Positions 4,539 to 62,200 of a stretch of DNA of 64,000 nucleotides are shown here, piece after piece. Source of the DNA: Eledone cirrhosa (Eukaryota); assembly GCA_964016885.1 (NCBI GenBank), contig OZ024741.1, forward strand, positions 379,254,001 through 379,318,000, read 5' to 3'. How positions within the stretch are numbered: position 1 is the stretch's first letter; each line of letters opens with the position of its first letter. The translations under genes were made by a program, and so were the position numbers. A model generated the notes under the pieces. The model searched no databases and was not told where the DNA came from. It worked only from the letters and a program-made list of their open reading frames with translations.

Positions 4539-4581
<43 letters not shown>

Positions 4582-4628
4582 AATGAATAATAACAGGTAG
4601 ACATCATAAAAAGGTAATTTATTCCGTG

Positions 4629-4740
4629 TGCTTACAAGTGTTTCCACGGTGGTACTGCAGCCTAGTTATGCTACATGCAAATTCACAAGTACTTGCAGAT
4701 CGCAAATATCCAATGCTGTGACCACTGTTTCCTCAGAGCA
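4629..4740 (-). ncRNA. Type I hammerhead ribozyme (left arm)
   Basis: Reverse complement of 7115-7226. Confidence 0.7.
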
Positions 4741-5306
4741 GAGTGGTAAAATGTACAATGTAAGTACCCTTAAGTGGGGTTGTTGGGGAAGATAGAGTAG
4801 AAAAGGAAGAGAGAAAAGTAGGGAAGAGGGAGAGAGAAAGAAAGATATGCAGGGGTTGGAGAAGTAGGAGAGAGTGGCTTGTAGATATCTTAATCAAAAT
4901 GTTATGGTAGGGGTTTTATTATACTGGTTACTTTTGGAGAGATGCGTTGATAGTTAAGGTCGGAATTATTTATTTCCCCAGAGGGCAGGTTCATAGATGT
5001 TGAGAGGGAGGTAGGCCAAAGGCGAGAGAGAGAGAGTGTAATGGATGTAGAGAGAGATAGGTAGAGATGGGACAGACGAAGTTTGTGTGGTGAGTGAACT
5101 TTGGGTTTGTAGTAGTAATCTAGGAATTGCACTGAGTTACCATGTATAGTGATAAGCAGTGTATTGTCTTGTAATGTGGGGGGAAGAGATGGTTGTTAGC
5201 TAGAAAGCGGTGTTATAGTTATGGGTTCGAATGTTAAGTTATTTTATAGTGAGAGAATTTAGCTTTTAGTTTGTGGTTGCAGTATAATGATCGTTCAATT
5301 CTATCG

Positions 5307-5615
5307 TTAAGTAGTTTGTTTTAATATGTAAAAGAGGTTACATAACCTGCAGTACTTCAATCCACTCCGATATGCACTTGCGTTCGAAAGTATATCCCAT
5401 TTTAAAGTGAACTGTTGGTTGTGTTCACGTAGTTGCCAGGTCTTGTTGGCGAGCGTGGTCACAACACGGTGATTCGGATGTTTGATTGAGAATCGATGAC
5501 GGTACCAGCGAGATTTAAACGATGTGGTGGTAGATCCGATATAATACCATTTCTGGTCGTTCGATTCAACCGTGCATTGGTAAACAATGTTGGACTTTAG
5601 GCATTCATTCTTCAA
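5307..5615 (-). pseudogene. PLE GIY-YIG endonuclease domain (left arm)
   Basis: IVYQCTV..YYIGSTTTSFKSRWYRH...CRLC. Confidence 0.85.
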
Positions 5616-6253
5616 TGGACATCTTTCAGGTAGATGGTAGTTACATTCTTTGTTGTGGGTAGCGGGTATACCATGGATAGGTTGTGATAGCAGTACAGGT
5701 GGGTTGTGTAATACCCGTCTCCCATTTAGTGGTTGGGAGGCAGATATTGCGTTCTGCCCATCTGTTACTGAAATGTTTTGTTTTGTAGAGTTGTTTAATT
5801 GCCTTAAGTTAAGTTTTTTTATGTATGCTTCAAGGTTTAGTGCCGTGGAGTATGATAGTCTAATAGTTTTAGAGAAAGTATATCTGGTACAATCCTATTT
5901 TTAATGCCTCGATTAGTACAAAACTATCTCTTTCATTCTTTAAGTTAATCAACAAACACTTCCCTAATTCCCATAAATACAGCAAAATTCTGAACTCTAA
6001 AACTATTAGACTATCATACTCCACGGCACCAAACCTTGAAGCATACATAAAAAAACTTAACTTAAGGCAATTAAACAACTCTACAAAACAAAACATTTCA
6101 GTAACAGATGGGCAGAACGCAATATCTGCCTCCCAACCACTAAATGGGAGACGGGTATTACACAACCCACCTATACCGCTATCACAACCTATCCATGGTA
6201 TACCCGCTACCCGCAACAAAGAATGTAACTGCCATCTACCTGAAAGATGTCCA

Positions 6254-6562
6254 TTGAAGAATGAATGCCTAAAGTCCAACATTGTTTACCAATGCACGGT
6301 TGAATCGAACGACCAGAAATGGTATTATATCGGATCTACCACCACATCGTTTAAATCTCGCTGGTACCGTCATCGATTCTCAATCAAACATCCGAATCAC
6401 CGTTTTGTGACCACGCTCGCCAACAAGACCTGGCAACTCCGTGAACACAACCAACAGTTCACCTTAAACAGGGATATACTTTCCAGCGCAAGTGCATATC
6501 GGAGTGGATTGAAGTACTGCAGGTTATGTAACCTCTTTGACATATTAAAACAAACTACTTAA
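6254..6562 (+). pseudogene. PLE GIY-YIG endonuclease domain (right arm)
   Basis: Same motifs, preceded by the CNCH...CPLKNECL Cys linker. Confidence 0.85.
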
Positions 6563-7114
6563 CGATAGAATTGAACGATCATTATACTGCAACCACAAAC
6601 TAAAAGCTAAATTCTCTCACTATAAAATAACTTAACATTCGAACCCGTAACTATAACACCGCTTTCTAGCTAACAACCATCTCTTCCCCCCACACTACAA
6701 GACAATACACTGCTTATCACTATACATGGTAACTCAGTGCAATTCCTAGATTACTACTACAAACCCAAAGTTCACACACCACACAAACTTCGTCTGTCCC
6801 CTCTCTACCTCCATTACACACTCTCTCTCTCTCCTTTGGCCTATCTCCCTCTCAACATCTATGAACCTGCCCTCTGGGGCAATAAATAATTCCGACCTTT
6901 ACTATCAACGCATCTCTCCAAAAGTAACCAGTATAATAAAACCCCTACCATAACATTTTGATTAAGATATCTACAAGCCACTCTCTCCTACTTCTCCAAC
7001 CCCTGCATATCTTTCTTTCTCTCTCCCTCTTCCCTACTTTTCTCTCTTCCTGTTCCACTCTATCTTCCCCAACAACCCCACTTAAGGGTATTTACATTGT
7101 ACATTTTACCACTC

Positions 7115-7226
7115 TGCTCTGAGGAAACAGTGGTCACAGCATTGGATATTTGCGATCTGCAAGTACTTGTGAATTTGCACGTAGCATAACTAGGCTGCAG
7201 TACCACCGTGGAAACACTTGTAAGCA
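7115..7226 (+). ncRNA. Type I hammerhead ribozyme with ~85-nt stem II
   Basis: TGCT-CTGAGGA-AACAGTGGT...ACCACCGTG-GAAAC-ACTT-GTA-AGCA. Confidence 0.7.
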
Positions 7227-8039
7227 CACGGAATAAATTACCTTTTTATGATGTCTACCTGTTATTATTCATTATTTATATACACTCCGGAATACTGAAG
7301 GATCAGGAACTAAGTTTCTTCAACAATTCTTCCATAACTCGTAGAGTAACCTCTTACCGTACGTCAACCATATCCAGTGTAGTAATTAACCATTACTACA
7401 TCTTGGATAATCCTATACCTAATATATATATATATATATATATTAAGCACCGATTCTTTGCTTAAACTTCAATCTGTTATTTTAATAAATATTTGCTCTA
7501 TGGTTCTTATGTATTTGATATATATATTTATTCTTATCGTGTCCTCTTGGAATCTTAGTCTTCATGTTTATTATTATTGCTATATATATATATAGATATG
7601 TATGTCTGTGTGTATGTGTGTGTATGTGTGTGGGTGTACATGTGTGTGCATGTATGCGTACGTGTATGTATGTTAACATTGTTAGTCGTGTTTATTTTAA
7701 CAGATACATGTACTGTTCAAGCGTGTACCTGAGCGCATACACAATAAATGGCGTTTATTCCAAGTACTGTTTTATTCGATAAGAATGTGTACAATTACAT
7801 GCTCCAGCCTGATTATTTCCCAATGACTAAAACTAGTAAAACATAAAGCCTTGTATTAGCCACTGTATAATAATCCATTATTTAGTATTAAACAAATTTA
7901 ATAATTAAATAGTAACAAGAGTGGAATTTCTTCACGCATTTTCCATCGAAACCTGGCATGTTGTTAACCACATGACTGTAAAATGTTTGAATCCAAAAAT
8001 ATTGATCTTGTATATACTATAATCCTATAGAATCAGATG

Positions 8040-17966: not shown

Positions 17967-18022
17967 AAATAAAATAAAATAAAATAAATAACTCAAATAT
18001 TTAAAATTTAGCTTCGTTTATC

Positions 18023-18077
18023 ACTGCTATATATATTTCGGTGACAGCCATCTTTGGCTGTGACCTTTTCAGGCAGT
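18023..18077 (-). ncRNA. HHR copy with mutated core (CTGAAAA)
   Basis: Reverse complement of 18754-18808 with G8>A. Confidence 0.55.
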
Positions 18078-18753
18078 CCGAATTAGTTTGGTAGAGACGA
18101 GTACACATGTTGTTGAGGTGTTAACTTTGTCAATAGTCTGATATGCCCAGTTCCTGGTTGGGTTGTTGTTTCTATGAGGAACTGGAGTCATATGAATTTA
18201 AACAAACACATTTTATTTCAGCGTCAAAGGACATCCTCTCCTCCAATTGGTCAGTTGTGAGAACATTCCTCAGTCAAAAGTGTATGGAAATTCTTTCTGA
18301 GCCGAGGCTATCTGTAGTGGTTGTTTTTGTTATTAAGTACATTTGACCTCTACCCTTATGTTGGTAGTGGTGTTGGTGCTGGGGTCAGATTTGATTCCTG
18401 CTGCTGTTGATTTTAGGAGGATCTGTGTGTGTGTATTGGCATCTATCCTGCCACCATTTTTCGTGATGGTTGTGGTGTGGGGGGAGGGGCTGCCAAGCGT
18501 ATGAAGGGATAGGAGGCAATAAAATGAAGAAAATAAAAAATATTTTATTCTACTTTTCTTTATTTTATTCGCATTTTTTAGTCTTTTACCTTTTCATTTC
18601 ATTCTATTATTTTTTTTATTATTTATTATTTATTTATTATTTTTTTTATTTTCTTCATTTTATTGCCTCCTATCCCAGGAACTGGCATATCAGAGTATTG
18701 ACAAAGTTAACACCTCAACAACATGTGTACTCGTCTCTACCACATTAATTCAG

Positions 18754-18808
18754 ACTGCCTGAAGAGGTCACAGCCAAAGAGGGCTGTCATCGAAATATAT
18801 ATAGCAGT
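18754..18808 (+). ncRNA. Minimal type I hammerhead ribozyme
   Basis: ACTGC-CTGAAGA-GGTC-ACAGCC..GGCTGT-CATC-GAAA-TATATA-TA-GCAGT. Confidence 0.8.
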
Positions 18809-18953
18809 AATAAATGAAGCTAACTTTTCAATATTTGAGTTATTTATTTTAGTTTATTTTACATTACTCCGGAGTAAACAAACCAACCTGCGCACTTCGT
18901 CGAGTGCTCTAATCTGCATTCTGCCGTGTCGGCAAACAACCAACATATACTCA

Positions 18954-19690: not shown

Positions 19691-19730
<40 letters not shown>

Positions 19731-19787
19731 GTGGAAAAGTAAAAAATAGGAGAACAGACCGTTAATATATGTTTATTTAAAACAGAA

Positions 19788-19823
19788 CCTACGTACGTTT
19801 CGCCCGGATGGCCTTCTCAAGGG
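19788..19823 (-). ncRNA. Minimal HHR, U3-A8 core variant (TTGAGAA)
   Basis: Minus strand CCC-TTGAGAA-GGCCATCCGGGC-GAAAC-GTAC-GTA-GG. Confidence 0.55.
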
Positions 19824-20715
19824 CATAAATAACTAAAAAGTGTTCCTTACATGGCCCGGAAATTGCATTTGGAGGTAAGTTCACGTCAGAGGTAAGTTCA
19901 TTCTTCATTGGAGGTAAGTTCATTCTTCGCAAAAATGCGTGTTTTGATTTTTCAGTAAGTCAAGGGAGGTAACTCTGGTCGGTGTTAGGGCATAGTTACC
20001 AGCTTAGAAATAGAAAAGTACACAAAACCGTATGTCCCTCTGACGCCTAGATTCTCCCTTAAGAATCACAAATGTAACTTTAATGAAAGCCCTCTATTAG
20101 ACTAATATGTCCCTCTACATCTGATATAGGTAAGATTAGTAAAGTGATCCTCGATAGATTACTACTGGAGCTTAATAGAAAGACTAAGGTCCGCCTCTGG
20201 GGCAAAACCGACCAGGTCATAAATTGGTTCACAGAGTTGCCTGATAAAGCGACCTTGAAGTTCTTCCAGTTTGACATAGATAGTTACTACGTCTCTATCT
20301 ACCCCATACTCTTAAATACGGCACTCATATTAGCTAAATCTTACACTAGCCTCACTAAGTTCTAGGGCTCCCACTGGACCGGAACCAACCGTCCTGATAA
20401 CTTCGATATCATGATGGGGTCCACCGACTCAGCGAACGCAACTGACCTGGTCGGAATGTACCTCCTCCGACCCTACCTGGAGGTGTATATAGGGACGACG
20501 CCCTCTTTACCGTTAGGAACCATAGCCCTCGTAGGATAGAGAACCTTAACAATCATATACACAGGTGCTTTTAGTCATACTGCCTATCCGTAATTAGAGA
20601 CCTAAAACCACCAGGTTGTAAATTTCCTGGACGTGACCCTGGAGTTGAGTACGGGCCTATACAAGCCATACCATAAGCCTGGAGAGAGCCTTTCTGATAT
20701 TAATTATGCCTCCAA

Positions 20716-20902
20716 GGCGGTGGGTTGGCAGTATCGGTAGAGGGTCAGATGCCATGCTTTGACGCATAGAGTTACGGCCCTTGCCATTCTGAGTTCAAAT
20801 CCCCCCGAAATTAACTTTGCCTCTCATCCTTACGGGGTCGATAAACTAAAGTACGAGTAATGCACTGGGATAATTGCTGGCCTTGTGTCAAAAGTAGAAA
20901 CA
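20716..20902 (+). mobile_element. SINE inserted into the PLE RT region with a 17-bp TSD
   Basis: ATTAATTATGCCTCCAA at 20699-20715 and 20903-20919; A/B boxes in the head. Confidence 0.9.
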
Positions 20903-21696
20903 ATTAATTATGCCTCCAACCACCCTAAGCAGACTCTCAACTCCATAGTCTATAGCATCTCACATAGGATCTCGAGGCTCTCCGCCAATGAAGATATCTT
21001 CAACCAAGCGGCAGATTACTACAATAGGGCTCTGATAAGCGCTGGCTTTAACCGAGGAATTTCCTACATCCCTAACGCTAGCTCCCCTCATAAGACGAAC
21101 GTTATAGTAAGCCATAGCTATAACCCATCACGCGGCGACTTCGTAGGAGTCGGATGTAATAGTATAGATAATCGCACTAAGCAACACTGCCGCAACGTTA
21201 ATTAAACTGGCTATAGTATAGGTAACTTACCACACAATAAAGATCCCAACCCCGGTGACAGTGACCACTGTAGTTTACTCGAACTATTCCCCTACTATAA
21301 AATCAACAAAGGCCACGGCCTACTACTCACGCCATCCAACCAACATATTCCTGTACATAAACATAGCAGAAGGAAGAAGTGTGTGGCCTCCGACATACCC
21401 TGGATATTCTTCGAAGCCTTAGAGAAGAACTTCCCACCCAACCATAGGTATAAAAAAATCCTTAATAGGAACAATATAAACATATCCTTATCCACTACTC
21501 CTAACCTAGCAGACATCATAGGAACATCATAGCAGACATCACAGGAACAACTAATCACAGTAAGATCACCAAGACACAATACCTTAGTACAGACGCACCT
21601 ACACCCGACAATAACTATATCGGCCTTAACGACTCACTAGCAGCATCCAATAGTGTTGGGAATAGCCTCTACAGACGCAAACAGCATAACCGCGAC

Positions 21697-22290
21697 ATGA
21701 CTGGGGAACATGAAGGACATGACGTGCGGAATAATAATGGTTCCACCCCGCACACAGTGAGTTGTAATGTTGCTAACGACAGGAGCGGGAGCGGAGGTAA
21801 CCACGTAGATAGCAATAATGATAGCCTTACCGTGGGAATTAGAAGGGACGGCGACCGAAATTGCAACTGCCGCGACATGGGACGCTGCCCCCTTAGGGGA
21901 TACTGCTTGACTGCTAGGGTTATATATAGGTGCACTGTAACTAACCACAATAGCGTTAAACATTATATAGGGGCTACCTCTGGCCCGTTTAAAATTAGAT
22001 TTCGCACACATCTCCACTCTTTCACAAATAAGAAATTAAGACACTCCACTTCGCTCGCGGACTACATCACATCATTAAAAGACTTAAACAACAGCTTCTC
22101 CACGTACTGGTATATTGTCCGCAGGGCTGCACCGTACAACTTCAAGAGGAAGTGCGATATTTACCTCATGGTGCTCTACTACATCATAACGGCACCCCAC
22201 GAGCTCATCAACAGCAGAGCTGAAACGACGATGAGCTGTGCACAACGCTTAAAACTATCCTTCTTCAGATGGGATAAGGATCAGGAGTGA
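21697..22290 (+). pseudogene. PLE Cys-linker and GIY-YIG endonuclease
   Basis: 197-aa ORF with the GIY-YIG motifs listed above. Confidence 0.85.
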
Positions 22291-22658
22291 AACTGTATAC
22301 CGGGTCTCCCTGCAACAAGCTTTAACACCCTGGCTGGCGGCGCTGCAAAAAACATCCGGAAACTAACCATACATCCCAGACCCAGCTTCAAATGACCTAG
22401 GCCGGCAGGTGCAGTGAACAAATGTCTCAAAACAAACTTACCTGACCCTGTGCGTATCGTCAATGGTAAAGTTGTAACCACATCGTGTAACAGATAAAAA
22501 ATGTGTCCGGGAAAAACTGCCCTAACACCGACCAGCGTTACCTCCCTTAACCTACTGCAAAATCAAAATACGCATTTTTGCGAAGAATGAACTCTGGCGT
22601 GAACTTACCTACAAAAAGACTTTCCGGGCCATGTAAGGAACACTTTTTAGTTATTTAT

Positions 22659-22693
22659 GCCTTGAGCAGCCCATGCGGGCGAAACGTACGTAC
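22659..22693 (+). ncRNA. Minimal HHR copy (TTGAGCA core, probably inactive)
   Basis: TTGAGCA-GCCC-ATGC-GGGC-GAAAC-GTAC-GTA. Confidence 0.45.
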
Positions 22694-22904
22694 GTGCTGT
22701 TTTAAATAAACATGTATTAACGGACTGCTCTCTTATTTCTTACTTTTACACGTGCTTACGCTCTACTAACTCTCTCGCCCACTAGATGTTAACACCTCTA
22801 ATATCTAACACTGCCAGCACTAGTATTGAGCACCTTTTGCACACGCTATTTGGCAAACTACTACATGTATCACCTATCTCAACTTTTTTCTTTCTCTCGA
22901 TACG

Positions 22905-40100: not shown

Positions 40101-41441
40101 CAAAAGCCTGGAGATCTTCAAGGTGGCAGATAACATCAGACAGTTGTTGGGCAAGAGTATGAGGTCCTGGGAAACAGAGTTGACATCAACTGGAGAATCC
40201 TTGGGAAGCGTGAAGATCAAGAGAGGTATCTTCCAGGGAGATAGCCTGTCCGATCTATTGTTTGTCCTTGCCCTGATGCCCCTGACCAGTCTACTGCGAG
40301 CAGGATACGGGTTGGGAAAGGGAGGGCTTACCATCAATCACCTCCTCTTCATGGACGATCTTAAGCTCTTCGGGAAGAGTGAGAAGGAGTTGGATGTGCT
40401 TGTTGACACTGTCCGTATTTTCAGCAGTGATATATGTATGCAGTTTGGTATTAGTAAGTGTGGGGTCACTGTGATGAGGTGGGGTAGGTTGAGCAGAAGT
40501 AACGGAATCCAGATACCAACAGGTGAGATGATAAAGGAAATTGACTCTGAGGAAGAATACAAGTATTTGGGCGTTCTTGAGGCTGATGGCATAAAGAACA
40601 AAAAAAATGAAGGAATTGTTAAAAAATGAATACATTCGGAGAGCAAGGAGCGTGTTGAAGTCACATCTGAACAGCAGAAATGCCATAAGCGCAGTAAATT
40701 CCCGAGCTGTGTCTATTATTAGGTGCAGTACGGGAATTCTGAGATGGAATGTTGCCGAACAAAAAGAAATGGATAGGAAGACTAGGAAGCTATTGACTAT
40801 CTACAACATGTTCCACAAGAGGAGTGATGTCGATAGACTCTACCTAAGGAGATCTGAGGGTGGAAGAGGTCTTATCAGCATAGAGGACTGTGTTCAGATG
40901 GAGAAAAACAACCTACACAAATACGTGACTGATAGTAAGGAGCCAATGCTCAGAACTGTACTGAAGGAGGGGACAATAGGTCAGGGGTTGTCCAAGGAGG
41001 AAATAACATCAAGGAGAAAGAGCAGCCTTCAGGAAAAATCCCTTCATAGTACCTTCTTTGAGAAAACTGAATTTAGAGATACACAGACATGGAACTGGTT
41101 GAGAAGAGGAGACCTTAAAAAGGCTACAGAAGGAATGTTAATGGCTGCGCAGGAGCAGGCCATCAAAACGAAGTGGTTGAAATACCATATTTACAAGGAG
41201 GAAGCTAGCCCACTGTGCAGGATCTGTGGAGAGAGAGAGGAGACTGTGGCTCACATTGTATCCGAGTGTAAACACCTAGCCCAGACCCACTATAAGGGCT
41301 GGAGACATGATGTGATGGGCAGGGTGATCCACTGGCGCCTGTGCAAAGTAAACAATTTACCACATTCTCAGAAATGATATGAGCATAAGCCAGATGCGGT
41401 GACAGAAAACGATCAGGTGGAGGTGCTGTGGGATTTTAGGA

Positions 41442-42793
41442 TACGTTGATAGCATCCTGATACTTACTTCTTCCCGGGAGATGGCGAATGAAATTCACCA
41501 AATCTTCAACGATACTGACCATCACGTCGATTTCACCATCGAACACCCAGAAGAAGACGGGTCACTCGCCCTCCTCGACTTCCGTATCACCATCTCGGAA
41601 GAAGGAGACATAAACACCACCTTCTACCGCAAAGCAGCGTGCAAGGACTTATTTGTGCATGACAACTCAGCCCTCCCCAACAACGCTAAGAGAGGCTATG
41701 TCCTAAATGAACTGACACGGATCACTAACAGATGCAGCGACACGATGGGTGGTCTCACCCATACCACGCAATTCCGTAATCTACTCAAGTCTAATGGATA
41801 TCCCAAGTGACTGATTAACGGAATTAGAGACCCCAGACCCAATAGACAGACACCCACTAGAATCTTAAATAAAAGCAGGTGCTTCTTTAAAATCCCCCAC
41901 CTGAGTGAATATACCACGAACGCCATCCGCAGGGCCATACGGACGGAGGGACTTGACATACATTTGGCCCACACAGGACCTTCGCTGCGAAGATGCCTCT
42001 CCAACAAACCCGACGAGTCAGATGGGACGTGTTCCCTCAGCAACTGCCCGATACGGGGGGCAGATTGCCTACGCACCTATGTCGTATATAAGATTCAATG
42101 CGATAAATGCAACACGTTTTACATAGGTAGCACCATCCGACCCCTACATATTCGTATCAAGGAACATATCAACACCAACGCATCTTCCTTCCGTAAACAC
42201 ATCCTTAAATGCGGAAACCCACAGGGTAGACCCTTGGTCACAGTCCTAGCGACTGAACGCAGCATCTGATCCTTAAGGATTAAGGAAGCACTTGTTATTA
42301 AGAACCTCAGACCCCCACTTAACAACCGGGCTGAGAGAAATGAGCTGACATGGCTAACTTAACCATAGTAACCATTCACAGCCCTTACGGCCTGCTATTT
42401 TCACACACACGCATGTATAAGCATACCCATACGCATACACACACACATCTATATTTATACACGCACACATGTTTTTACAACCTACCACCTTTCACACCCT
42501 TTGATTTCCAGCTTCTACAGCCCACACACACACGCACTCACACATATACACACACAGTTACACACACATATTTATTTACACACACATATTTTACGGCTTT
42601 CACACGCTAGCGCACCCTCTTGATTTAACCCATTTGGTCAGTAGCTTTTGCCACAGCCTATCACCTTCTACCTTTCTTTTGTTTTCATCTTTGTCTCTCT
42701 CAATTTTCACTTTCTCCTATTTCTCCTATCTATCATTCACTTCCTACCTCGAGATTTCCCTCTGCATTGTTGTGGCTTTCTAAACTACGTATT

Positions 42794-48799: not shown

Positions 48800-48830
<31 letters not shown>

Positions 48831-48836
48831 ACAATT

Positions 48837-49161
48837 ATATTAAAGAAATGGAAACTATATTTATAAAACCATATTTATTTTATTATATATATATTTCAAG
48901 GGCAACCAAGACAACATTGGTACGCTTTCATCAGATAGAATAGAAAGTTTGTTTTATAAATAGAGAAATACCCATGAAAATCATACCTATCGGTTGGAAG
49001 TTCAGTGGATAAGGTAGGATTTTCATGGGTATGTCTCTATTTATGAAATAAAATTAGTATTTTATCTGATGAAAGCGTACGAATGCTGTATTGGTTGCCC
49101 TTGAAATATATATAATAAAATAAATATGGTTTTATAAATCTGGTTTCTATTTATTTAATAT
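48837..49161. mobile_element. ~325-bp fold-back element with an HHR on each arm (48880-48938 minus; 49060-49120 plus)
   Basis: Arms 48837-48991 / 49008-49161; TTTTAT-CTGATGA-AAG...CTT-GAAA-TATATA-TA-ATAAAA. Confidence 0.75.
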
Positions 49162-49401
49162 CATTGAATATTTATTCCAGTAAAACTGTTGTGTGCTCTA
49201 AATCGGTTATAAACATTTATATTTGTCGGACTTCCAACAAATTAAATACCACGTCTACTTATATATATATATATATAATTGGTGTTGGATGCTTAAAGCG
49301 TCCGTAAGCGGTAAGCCGTATGAGCACTCAATCCCCTCGTAGAGCAGAGTATGATATCACAGAAAAAAGAGATTCAGTGTTGCGACGCAAGGATTTTATT
49401 G

Positions 49402-51260: not shown

Positions 51261-51440
51261 AAAAATGATTGTATATCATACATAATTCTATTATAATAGC
51301 AGGATTAACAATTATATTAAAACATCTGCTGAATTCCAGCTATTATTCTAGAAGCAATATAGTCAATGACAGTAACAACATGCCTACTTTGAACCGCATA
51401 CACTTACAAAATACATTTCATAATAATACAGAATGATCTG
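51261..51440 (+). repeat. ~175-bp segment duplicated at 58336-58513
   Basis: ATTCTATTATAATAGCAGGATTAACAATT...CCTACTTTGAACCGCATAC... in both. Confidence 0.85.
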
Positions 51441-58009: not shown

Positions 58010-58240
58010 AAGGATGCAAGGAAGATTACATAGGACAAACTAAACTCACACTCAGAAATCGATTGACAATTCATCGCCAAAAATTACGAGATCCTACCAC
58101 AAGACAGATACCACTAAGTTCACATCTAGAAATATGCACAAGTAATAAGACCAATTCCAAGTATTACAATTATTGTTTCGACACACGATTTCAAATCAAA
58201 AACCTCGCAAAACAAATTTATCGCGTCATTGTATATAGAT

Positions 58241-58300: not shown

Positions 58301-58536
58301 AAAATGTATGAAAAATGTATGAAAAAGTGTATGAAAAAATGATTGTATACCATACACAATTCTATTATAATAGCAGGATTAACAATTTTATTAAAACATC
58401 TGCTGAATTCCAGCTAATATTCTAGAAGCAATATAGTTACTGACAAAATAACACGCCTACTTTGAACCGCATACATTTACAAAATACATTTCATAATAAT
58501 ACAGAATAATCTGGTTCCACACCACAACTTCCTCGT

Positions 58537-58568
<32 letters not shown>

Positions 58569-58694
58569 TGTTTTGAAACAGTGGGCAGGTTTGAAATTAG
58601 AAAATAGAATAGCTTTCACCGTATTTTTTGACTAATGAAATTTAGTCTGATAATTGGGTTTAGAACCCTCAGATAAATGGAAAAAGATGAGTAT

Positions 58695-58766
58695 TGACGT
58701 ACATGGGAGTCGAACCCACATCTTTGATTATCCAGACCACTGTGCTACCATTTACACCAACACATC
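58695..58766 (-). ncRNA. tRNA-like sequence (tRNA-Gln-like boxes, GGA at the anticodon position)
   Basis: TGGTGTAAATGGTAGCAC, GGGTTCGACTCCC; cloverleaf with weak G-U-rich acceptor stem; followed by T5. Confidence 0.65.
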
Positions 58767-59065
58767 ACCCATCTCTTTCCATTCAAATTAGAGGTTACAT
58801 TCTTAGCGAATACAAATGACAAGTAAAAATATGTTTTGAAACAGTGAGCAGGTTTGAAATTAGAAAATAGAATAGCTTTCACCGTATTATCAGACTAAAA
58901 TTATCAGACTAAAATTAACAGACTAAAATGTCATTAGTCAAAAAATAAGGTGAAAGCTATTCTATTTTCTAATTTCAAACCTGCTCACTTTTTCAAAGCA
59001 TATTTTTACTTGTCATTTGTACTCGCTAAGAATGTAGCCTCAAATTTGAATGGTAAGAGATGGGT

Positions 59066-59137
59066 GATGTGTTGGTGTAAATGGTAGCACAGTGGTCTGG
59101 ATAACCAATGATGTGGGTTTGACTCCCATGTGCGTCA
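59066..59137 (+). ncRNA. tRNA-like sequence, inverted copy
   Basis: Same as above with B box GGTTTGACTCC; TTTTTT at 59147-59152. Confidence 0.6.
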
Positions 59138-59227
59138 ATACTCATCTTTTTTCCATTTATCTGAGGGTTCTAAACCCCATTATCAGACTAGAATTTCATT
59201 AGTCAAAAAATGCGGTGAAAGCTATTC

Positions 59228-59260
<33 letters not shown>

Positions 59261-62200
59261 ATTATACACCACATTTATTTGAAACCAGACGTGAAAGAAT
59301 AATGAGCTATCACCTGGAAAATTTGAAGATGAACTTATGATCTGTGAATTAATAATGCATAGAGGTATTAACTCTTATCCATTGATGGGCTTGACAGATT
59401 TCACCATTCATGATACAACAAATTAAATCATACACTTACAAGTCTAGAAGGGCGTTTTGCATCAACCAACGATTGAAAACGAGGGAAAATAATTATGATA
59501 TTTAAATGACTTTACTCTCCAGATAACTTCGGGAATGGACTAAGAATTGATAGAATGAGTCTACATTTGTATATAAAACGAATTCGTAATCCAGTGATTT
59601 ACGACTATGTAACGAGATATGCACATGTGTCGTGACAGCTAACCCTGACATTATTATAACAACGACCCTTTGATTCTGTAGAAATTGAGACTTCTCTAAC
59701 TATACCTGACATATATGCTTGCATACAAAGCAGTTATCGCCCTATAACCTACTTTATATTGAGTTTGAATTCTGGTTGAAGAAACCTAATATACTAAAGT
59801 TCCCAACAGAGCTATACATACAAACATAAATATATTCCAATAACAGAAAATAATGGATCTCTTTCAGATACTCCTCAGAAAGTTGTAGGCAACGATACTT
59901 TGCTGATATGTCTACTGCGACCACACATACAGCAGTAAAACCTATCATATTTGATTATTCGCTGAATGACAAGAAAGACCTTCAACATAATTATTCACAT
60001 CCCTATTCACAAACTAAATGCTTTAAGTAGAACACAATGGCATCAACGCAATCATTTCGAATACACATCAAACGAATAACTTAAAACCCATGACAAAATG
60101 GTACTTCAGTGATCTTCAACAATACTATTCCGACATTCATCGAAACACACTTAACAACAAAACGCAATATTAACATAAATACGCCACAATGCTCATCAAG
60201 TATTAGAACTATGAAAATTACAAATGAAATACCAATTACAAATAGCATATGAAGATCAAAAATAAAATGCCCATATTACTGATACGTACTAGATTTAGCA
60301 TGCAATATGTCTAATATATAGGGTGGACATATATCTAAATTGCCCCCATCAGTTATCCCACCACTAAGTATCTAGCTTTCCCAAATCATACACTTGTTAT
60401 TATGTTAACTCTTATAATATTACCGCAAATTGAAAGTAAACTTATGAAGTTATATACTTTTGCCGAGTCAAACAGTCATAGACTTTTGCAGTTTAGAGAA
60501 TGACAAATATTGTACATTATATAATGATGATCCATCCAAATAAAACATATTGTTTGTGAAACACTGCCAAGTATGATGGCATTACTCAGACATTAAGGCA
60601 CGTATAAAAATGTAAAACAATTTATTTGGTTTAATCTAAAGCGATATGTTAATTCTGAAAAGAATTAGTATGGCAAAGGCTTCTTCATGTTTATAATATT
60701 CTCTCAGTAATTACATATTATTCAAAACATGCAAAGGTAATACATGACATCTAATTCCTTCTCAAACCATAATATGATTATTATCTCGCTCTAAAATCTG
60801 GGAACGTTTTACAATCTAAGGCCACACAAATCCCAACTCATATTTAAAGAGAAATAGCGTCTTAAAGCTTCCTAGGCAGCAAGTGTGTCTAACGTGAGAT
60901 AATTATGTTAATGTAATATTTTAAAAAATATATCCCCTCGTATAAGGAAACACACTATCTCCATTGAAATGTCTCATATACCTGAAACAACTTCAATATT
61001 AAGAAATCCCAAACAAGTTTCAAGAACTGGAACACCTCATGGGTCGTCCCTCGTTAGTAAATGCCCTACAAATCTAAACATGATCCAGAGAAACAATAGA
61101 AATACTATGAAAATCGAATCAAAATAGATGGACGCTGCGTGAAAGTGCTTCTAATTATGTGGGAAGATTATGAGATTAGCTGTCAGTGGTTGGGCAGATA
61201 ATATTCAGAAGAAAGTGTTTTTTTCTTCTGCTATGGAGAAAGTCATATATCCTTGAAACAAAAAACATAAACAATCAGTGAGAAACTGACACAGAAAAAA
61301 GTCCCATCGAGATGTGAAAAGTACCGGACGAAAATGTATACCTCCCTCTGCGGAAAGATTAATAATTTGAAGCTCCAGAGAAGTGATGCTTTATAATGCC
61401 GCTGAATGACTACCGAAAACACGGAAGGAAACGAGAAAGGCTCGGTTTGTTACATAAGTCAGCATTATCATAACGTGCTTAAATAAATGTAACTATTTAA
61501 GATATTTCTATTAGTTATTCTACTCGATATAATTTCAATAAAATAACGAATTAATTAGCGTTTGATATCTGTATATTGAGTTTACCTCCTTTTAGTTTGT
61601 ATTTCCAGAAATACTTTGAAAACGGAATATTTCGAATATGGTTGGTAGATCAGGAAAGTATGTCAGTTTAAATAAAGAGAGAGATAGATCATGTTGTCCT
61701 TCTTAATATTTTTCTAGCTGATGTTCGGGAAATAATACTTTGGGTAACAAAGTTATCACTTCGCAATGTTTTGCCTTTTCTTCATTTCCATTTTTGTTAA
61801 GGGCTGGGTACATTTTGTATTTGGACTAGCACCTATAAAACCCTCCATTAATTTTCAGTACAAATTATGTTTTATACGAAATGTTTGTTATTTTCTGTTA
61901 TATTACTGTTTGTTCTTTTAAACAAATTTATTGTAAACAATATTAATGACAATTCTAATTATGACAATTCTATTAATCTATTAATGACAATTCTAAATTG
62001 ACAAGAGCATTCGGCTTGATATTCAATCTAAAAGTAATATCAGTACATATTTTGCATTAGGAAAATGCAGCGATGTTGGCGACATTTGATACAGGTGGTA
62101 GAGAGGAAAGATGGTGGCTTTATACCCAATAGTTTGTTCAGATATTTGCAACACATTGGATACTAATAACGGTATTCAAGAGGCATGTCAGGAAGTTAAA

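Follow-up and report, generated by a model that had tools for sequence, protein, structure and literature searches.

In the accessible parts of the published accounts (PMC6765202, PMC2770079), the closest described counterpart of the repeat reported here is Sm-alpha of Schistosoma, which combines a tRNA-Gln-derived sequence, RNA polymerase III (Pol III) transcription and a hammerhead. Our unit resembles Sm-alpha as well as Sj-alpha, both SINE-like retroposons with reported Pol III transcription and multimeric transcripts, in being short, both tandem and dispersed, and in containing a tRNA-Gln-derived sequence; unlike Sm-alpha, whose hammerhead is active, it has no hammerhead and carries a complete cloverleaf within an 18-bp stem that includes a run of five thymines (T5). 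Animal non-LTR retrozymes, as outlined in portions of PMC7229834 and bioRxiv 10.64898/2026.07.22.740005, are also non-coding tandem units (170 to 400 nt) and have been proposed to be non-autonomous derivatives of Penelope-like elements (PLEs). Their definition requires a type I hammerhead as well as circular RNA, whereas the present unit has no such ribozyme.

The sections of Craig 2021 (PMC8557442) that treat PLE insertions describe partial tandems, inverted truncated copies, a 30- to 40-bp tail on one end and a preference for (TA)n. The corresponding sections of Frangieh 2024 (PMC11167929) trace the tail to two internal reverse transcriptase (RT) start sites and report that both strands are cleaved and that hammerhead cleavage is dispensable in vitro. 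Copies of our unit share with the MRC1 non-autonomous PLEs and with Naiad, Hydra and Neptune insertions the partial tandems, the inverted 5'-truncated copy, the one-end tail expected of two internal RT starts and the (TA)n preference, and they differ in a tail of about 45 nt instead of 30 to 40 and in the internal tRNA module. A small-RNA-derived Pol III promoter inside a non-SINE, non-autonomous retroelement is also a feature of the TRIMp3 elements Helenus, Ajax and Cassandra; in the text available from PMC10886601 these are LTR elements that make 5-bp target duplications and have primer-binding sites, whereas the present unit has variable 5' ends and inverted arms. Unclassified SINEs and Penelope families are listed without such a unit in the part of PMC13282606 at hand. 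Our literature search found no hammerhead-free, tRNA-bearing PLE passenger; Repbase, Dfam and subscription papers lay outside that search, so the unit may be catalogued there as a SINE.

The copy that led us to this family lies near the right end of a 64,000-nucleotide stretch of Eledone cirrhosa DNA, the whole of which we refer to as the window. It is a two-armed insertion at about 58564 to 59230 with the following features.

58537 to 58563, no strand: left (TA)n target tract, from sequence and repeat inspection
58564 to 58898, minus strand: left arm, about 1.3 units, tRNA-sense on minus; its outer end lies at 3' site B and carries the tail
58675 to 58692, minus strand: 3' strand of the left arm's 18-bp outer stem, T5 included (58681 to 58685)
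58695 to 58766, minus strand: left tRNA-like cloverleaf, A and B boxes intact (ARAGORN and Rfam RF00005, 43.8 bits)
58767 to 58784, minus strand: 5' strand of the left arm's outer stem
58886 to 58929, no strand: arm-arm junction with the 14-bp triplication
58914 to 59230, plus strand: right arm, about 1.2 units; its outer end lies at 3' site A, without a tail
59048 to 59065, plus strand: 5' strand of the right arm's outer stem, within which a Pol III start site would fall
59066 to 59137, plus strand: right tRNA-like cloverleaf, B box with one C-to-T change (ARAGORN and Rfam RF00005, 41.5 bits)
59121 to 59138, plus strand: counterpart of the family's main 5'-truncation zone (t55 to t72), with the A58 equivalent at 59122
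59140 to 59158, plus strand: 3' strand of the right arm's outer stem, T6 included (59147 to 59152)
59231 to 59262, no strand: right tract, (TA)n then (TG)n

The original prediction had described a back-to-back unit of about 263 bp, present in about 1.2 copies per strand, a triplicated 14-bp sequence where the two strands' copies meet, and (TA)n on both sides. This description held throughout: the direct repeats are spaced 263 nt apart in the left arm and 265 nt in the right, the 14-bp unit is present in 3.1 copies, TA tracts border the copy on the left and the right, and the two full units are 95% identical. Both cloverleaves score above the RF00005 gathering score of 29, bearing out the proposed internal tRNA-like fold, and GGA is read at the anticodon position beside a variable loop of 4 nt, as had been claimed. 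The oligo-T run was likewise found where it had been placed, beginning 10 nt past the discriminator in each arm. An extra stem beyond the acceptor does exist, although it is longer than had been stated, at about 18 bp, and pairs a leader with a trailer in which the T-run lies; fold z scores were -2.5 and -3.4 for the two window arms, compared with 0.1 for the cloverleaf alone. Contigs of X1 and X2 show no more than the repeat and the unique sequence on its right.

The locus belongs, as one fold-back copy, to a young and dispersed family of non-coding repeats. It is neither a chance nor a single-locus sequence: a 22-nt motif is matched exactly 1,192 times and a 26-nt motif 1,229 times (reversed controls, 0). 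A search with the unit in the 3.0-Gb genome gave 2,690 candidates, 40 of which were scored, and a search with a diverged subfamily gave 1,649. The 50 top-scoring full units, a selection that favors young copies, diverge from the consensus by a mean of 2.4%. Subfamilies of 260, about 270 and 290 nt have the tRNA part in common and differ by indels in their tails. Some members form long tandem arrays of the 260- to 290-nt unit (L154, L175-L178 at C28 ~19.45-19.72 Mb, L180, L181 and L223), satellite offshoots with many tRNA look-alikes, and a tandem segment of about 7 kb (L155, L169-L174; C2 314.59-314.63 Mb) holds one fold-back of the ~270-nt subfamily per copy. Before counting we removed long arrays (such as L223), duplicate loci and any arm of less than 20 to 30 nt, and one set of loci of uncertain selection was left out of the statistics.

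The predicted Gln-like character of the module was upheld in a comparison with host genes for Gln, Thr and Ile only: the module agrees with host tRNA-Gln(TTG) at 47 of 74 columns and with the available Thr and Ile genes at 36 to 37. Twenty of the 21 cloverleaf pairs are kept, enclosed by the extra stem. Relative to three host Gln genes, 10 of 21 pairs have changed on both sides and 8 of these separate Gln from the element, a comparison that represents a single divergence with an assumed ancestor; inside the family, two-sided covariation was found at 0 of 39 pairs. Two acceptor pairs are broken in the 290-nt subfamily and one outer-stem pair in the ~270-nt subfamily. All subfamilies retain the A box, the B box, the D-arm and the T-arm, whereas indels have arisen in the tail region. 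Each of the four subfamily consensuses contains T5, and host tRNA genes are followed by T4 or longer runs. A pattern search for a second, Gly-like D-arm gave 0 matches. The anticodon is variable (GGA or CGA) on a Gln-like body with a short variable loop, and the 27:43 pair is mostly broken. With an anticodon that varies and is mismatched to its body, the module is not a functional tRNA.

Other tRNA-bearing sequences were encountered during these searches. An unrelated element of about 1.75 kb (L127, L129-L137; for example, L131 reverse 1194-2925; G000 C1:420766010) lies between TA flanks and has a terminal hairpin and fixed ends. Its internal full cloverleaf (53 to 72 bits, variable anticodon) is followed by T4, and the element accounts for 10 of 16 RF00005 matches. 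It is possibly a non-autonomous DNA element or Helitron-like element. A tRNA-Gln gene cluster (L256-L274; C1 168.21-168.28 Mb) includes look-alikes with a CTA anticodon that ARAGORN calls Pyl (6 identical records in overlapping loci), which are possible amber-anticodon variants.

Insertion structure was analyzed in t coordinates, with t1 as the first cloverleaf base in the tRNA-sense orientation. Copies have variable 5' ends and two fixed 3' ends about 45 nt apart, one at about t150 to t176 (A) and the other at about t194 to t218 (B). Among 125 loci there were 94 fold-backs, 30 single-direction copies and 1 other arrangement, and of the 78 fold-backs in which both ends could be classified, 74 combine an A end with a B end (p 5e-18). 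The window copy follows this rule, with one end type per arm. In a sample of 67 loci taken in order of position, about 15 of which recur from earlier sets, 45 were fold-backs, and all 35 with classifiable ends paired one A with one B end. We take the one-end-per-arm rule to support twin priming at two internal sites.

TA flanks were present on both sides of 57 of these 67 loci and on at least one side of 66, compared with 8.6% of random windows. Because copies are flanked by TA tracts, target-site duplications are indistinguishable from the tract. Partial tandems are common: in 23 of the 39 position-ordered tRNA-bearing loci an arm is longer than one unit. Rare variants common to both arms of a locus occur at 5.5 per kb, versus 0.45 between loci (12 times), as expected of one source; gene conversion could also yield this pattern.

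One could read these copies as a conventional LINE-driven tRNA SINE, or as satellite units scattered by DNA-level events. Long tandem arrays do exist, and 3 of the 39 position-ordered tRNA-bearing loci begin at the tRNA head as a SINE would. Such loci are the exception, however, and the one-end-per-arm rule, polar 5' truncation and permuted tandems fit neither SINE insertion nor DNA-level dispersal, so this reading is largely refuted and in our estimation very improbable. Two fixed ends and permuted tandems agree instead with the earlier claim that these are not conventional SINEs, and partial tandems, in combination with inverted arms, (TA)n as the target and a pair of fixed 3' ends, back its proposal of a non-autonomous element with PLE-type insertions. 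The unit was likely mobilized by Penelope-type retrotransposon enzymes.

The absence of a hammerhead from the unit, which had also been asserted, was confirmed for four subfamily consensuses: no conserved hammerhead core turned up on either strand with Rfam, in a type I scan or in a scan for the core only. The type I scan did recover cores elsewhere in the window, at 18759 and 49066, and these hammerhead-like cores, together with PLE remnants, substantiate the neighboring PLE and hammerhead elements that had been proposed. The cores belong to inverted mini-elements in TA tracts (17970 to 18157 and 18675 to 18861; about 48830 to 49250). The remnants, at 4573 to 7282, 19729 to 22753, 41403 to 42266 and 58010 to 58171, comprise a GIY-YIG pair in inverted orientation, a frame flanked by inverted repeats, and two fragments, one Penelope-type and one Neptune-like, the latter lying 400 nt left of the fold-back copy. 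Another short repeat (58335 to 58536 and 51261 to 51440) ends at the fold-back copy's TA tract, and similar ends flank three other loci (L032, L050 and L147), which suggests nested insertion into the TA tracts of earlier elements.

An autonomous partner was sought among 50 PLE loci drawn from 10,596 GIY-YIG (PF01541) candidates, which we presume, from their motifs, to be mostly Neptune- and Penelope-type proteins. The unit had no significant match in these 50 loci, and no Naiad or Hydra copy was recognized among them. Two matches were rejected as chance, one of 22 nt (E 0.8) at the end of a PLE open reading frame (ORF) and the other by tblastx (E 0.03), antisense to the RT of the same ORF. Searching the DNA with the tail sequence yielded 0 candidates. 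Ten short motifs had no credible match in the Craig 2021 supplement (PMC8557442), and inspection by eye of the 3' ends of three octopus Naiads in part 24 of that supplement found only an opposite-strand 9-mer.

The variable 5' ends are concentrated at the T-loop. In a strict re-mapping that excluded motif-less arms (set A) and full-unit arms (set C) as ascertained, 48 of 114 5' ends fell at t57 to t69, which makes up 8.7% of at-risk bases; by set, the counts were 18 of 47 and 28 of 46 in two subfamilies and 2 of 21 in a third, smaller set. Ends that had mapped to t41 proved to be alignment over-extension of t61 junctions and were discarded. Because the earlier end samples were blind to palindromes further downstream, the position-ordered sample was drawn on the tail motif, with the bin fixed beforehand. 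Of its 120 5' ends, 50 lie in t55 to t72, 6% of the at-risk bases (p about 1e-29), and no symmetric joins at downstream palindromes were found among them. Passes that reached t72 stopped within t55 to t72 in 61 of 87 cases (~70%), and the 18-bp outer stem (t74 to t91) was passed with little loss. The pile-up is not a palindrome artefact, since 14 of 21 single-arm loci also end in this zone.

The edge of the truncation zone lies just 3' of the A58 equivalent (t56). The relevant portions of PMC11506809 describe m1A58 as near-universal in tRNA and as blocking base pairing, and those of PMC8599865 describe it as required in vitro for retroviral strong-stop. We consider the pile-up likely to be an RT stop, caused by m1A58, the tertiary fold or a T-loop cut. 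The stop zone starts about 5 nt downstream of A58, so that the m1A58 reading needs trimming to microhomology, and a tertiary-fold stall or a T-loop cut would give the same edge. Because 5' truncations pile up at the T-loop, the module probably works as a folded, tRNA-like RNA, and the polarity of the ends supports a tRNA-sense RNA template. The T-loop stop in genomic copies is what the present family adds to PLE-like passenger elements; our literature search found no description of one.

A role as a Pol III promoter seems the most likely one for the module, to judge from boxes that are both intact in every subfamily. T5, ten bases downstream and comparable to host terminators, should end Pol III transcription; the A and B sites lie beyond it, so templates must run 80 to 130 nt past T5. 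The proposed terminator is thus a puzzle for the Pol III reading and not support for it. The 5' ends themselves gave a weak hint of a start site: a pooled, post hoc bin at -10 to +15 held 22 ends in 1,478 at-risk bases, versus 87 in 13,284 (p 0.001). This excess was not replicated in two later samples (2 of 46 ends; 6 of 120 ends, p 0.24), and an early reading of the ends at -10 to +8 as a Pol III start likewise did not recur.

The T5 run gives some weight to a passenger view, in which a PLE-dependent repeat captured a tRNA-derived piece and owes its transcription to Pol II reading through from flanks or arrays; the piece would fold and stall RT without benefit to the element. T5 blocks the simple Pol III route, covariation is absent inside the family, and the boxes are missing from most new copies (45 of 67). 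Even so, no subfamily has lost either box, the D-arm or the T-arm despite the indels in the tail, and a useless module that stops ~70% of passes should be lost. Since only 22 of the 67 loci keep both boxes, the module is costly yet retained. The passenger view seems to us improbable.

Cutting by RNase P or RNase Z had been proposed to define the template ends in place of self-cleavage, a suggestion that the end maps do not support: no 5'-end peak was found at +1 or +72, the 120-end sample included, 11 of the 18 ends within -10 to +8 lie upstream of +1, and ends are most concentrated within the tRNA, upstream of the RNase Z site. In a broader form, host tRNA enzymes would replace the hammerhead, with a nuclease cut in or near the T-loop (or RNase P at +1), ligation into circles and rolling-circle reverse transcription. 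A T-loop-cut template would also produce a sharp 5'-end edge near t55 to t61, and the full cloverleaf is kept. The module sits about 100 to 160 nt upstream of the two ends; of 10 autonomous PLE loci inspected, 9 have hammerhead-like cores at a roughly similar distance (85 to 227 nt, by a crude measure). Rare variants are about 7 times more often common to tandem units than to unrelated loci, but unshared variants between tandem units far exceed shared ones. Position -1 is also paired in the model, one mobile subfamily has a degraded acceptor stem, and folding the whole unit as a circle gave unremarkable z scores (-0.6 to -1.95). With the +1 and +72 peaks missing as well, we regard this explanation as unlikely, if a little better placed than the passenger view.

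The explanation we favor, with a probability of roughly 0.6, is that the locus is a two-armed insertion of a protein-free, 260- to 290-nt repeat, copied by PLE enzymes from a Pol III-made, tRNA-sense RNA that folds like a tRNA. We postulate that transcription starts at about -10 under the control of the A and B boxes and that a share of transcripts reads through T5 into the next unit, which together would form the weakest step. By analogy with Craig 2021 and Frangieh 2024, a PLE enzyme would then nick both strands of a TA tract, and two cDNAs would begin internally at A and B and run towards each other. If m1A58 or the tertiary fold halted the enzyme close to the T-loop, the t55 to t72 5' ends could result, and the converging cDNAs may join via microhomology to give the fold-back and, here, the 14-bp slippage. 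The tRNA module would supply expression and a defined 5' end, as the pLTR does in hammerhead-bearing relatives, with no self-cleavage.

A bolder version, which we consider unlikely, is that the family is a ribozyme-free retrozyme. The tRNA mimic would recruit Pol III along with tRNA-modifying, -cutting and -ligating enzymes and so provide a unit-length, possibly circular RNA for PLE enzymes, with the copies recording m1A58 or a T-loop cut. If this were true, the fossil RT-stop footprint of a tRNA modification or cut would be readable from DNA alone.

On the reading we favor, PLE machinery can likely mobilize a SINE-like, tRNA-driven passenger that has no hammerhead, a PLE counterpart of SINEs and TRIMp3. 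This bears on the role of the hammerhead in PLEs, given that its cleavage was dispensable in vitro (Frangieh 2024). Copies of this kind pass tRNA finders and inflate tRNA and SINE counts, and the T-loop stop makes tRNA-like handling of a retroelement RNA in vivo testable.
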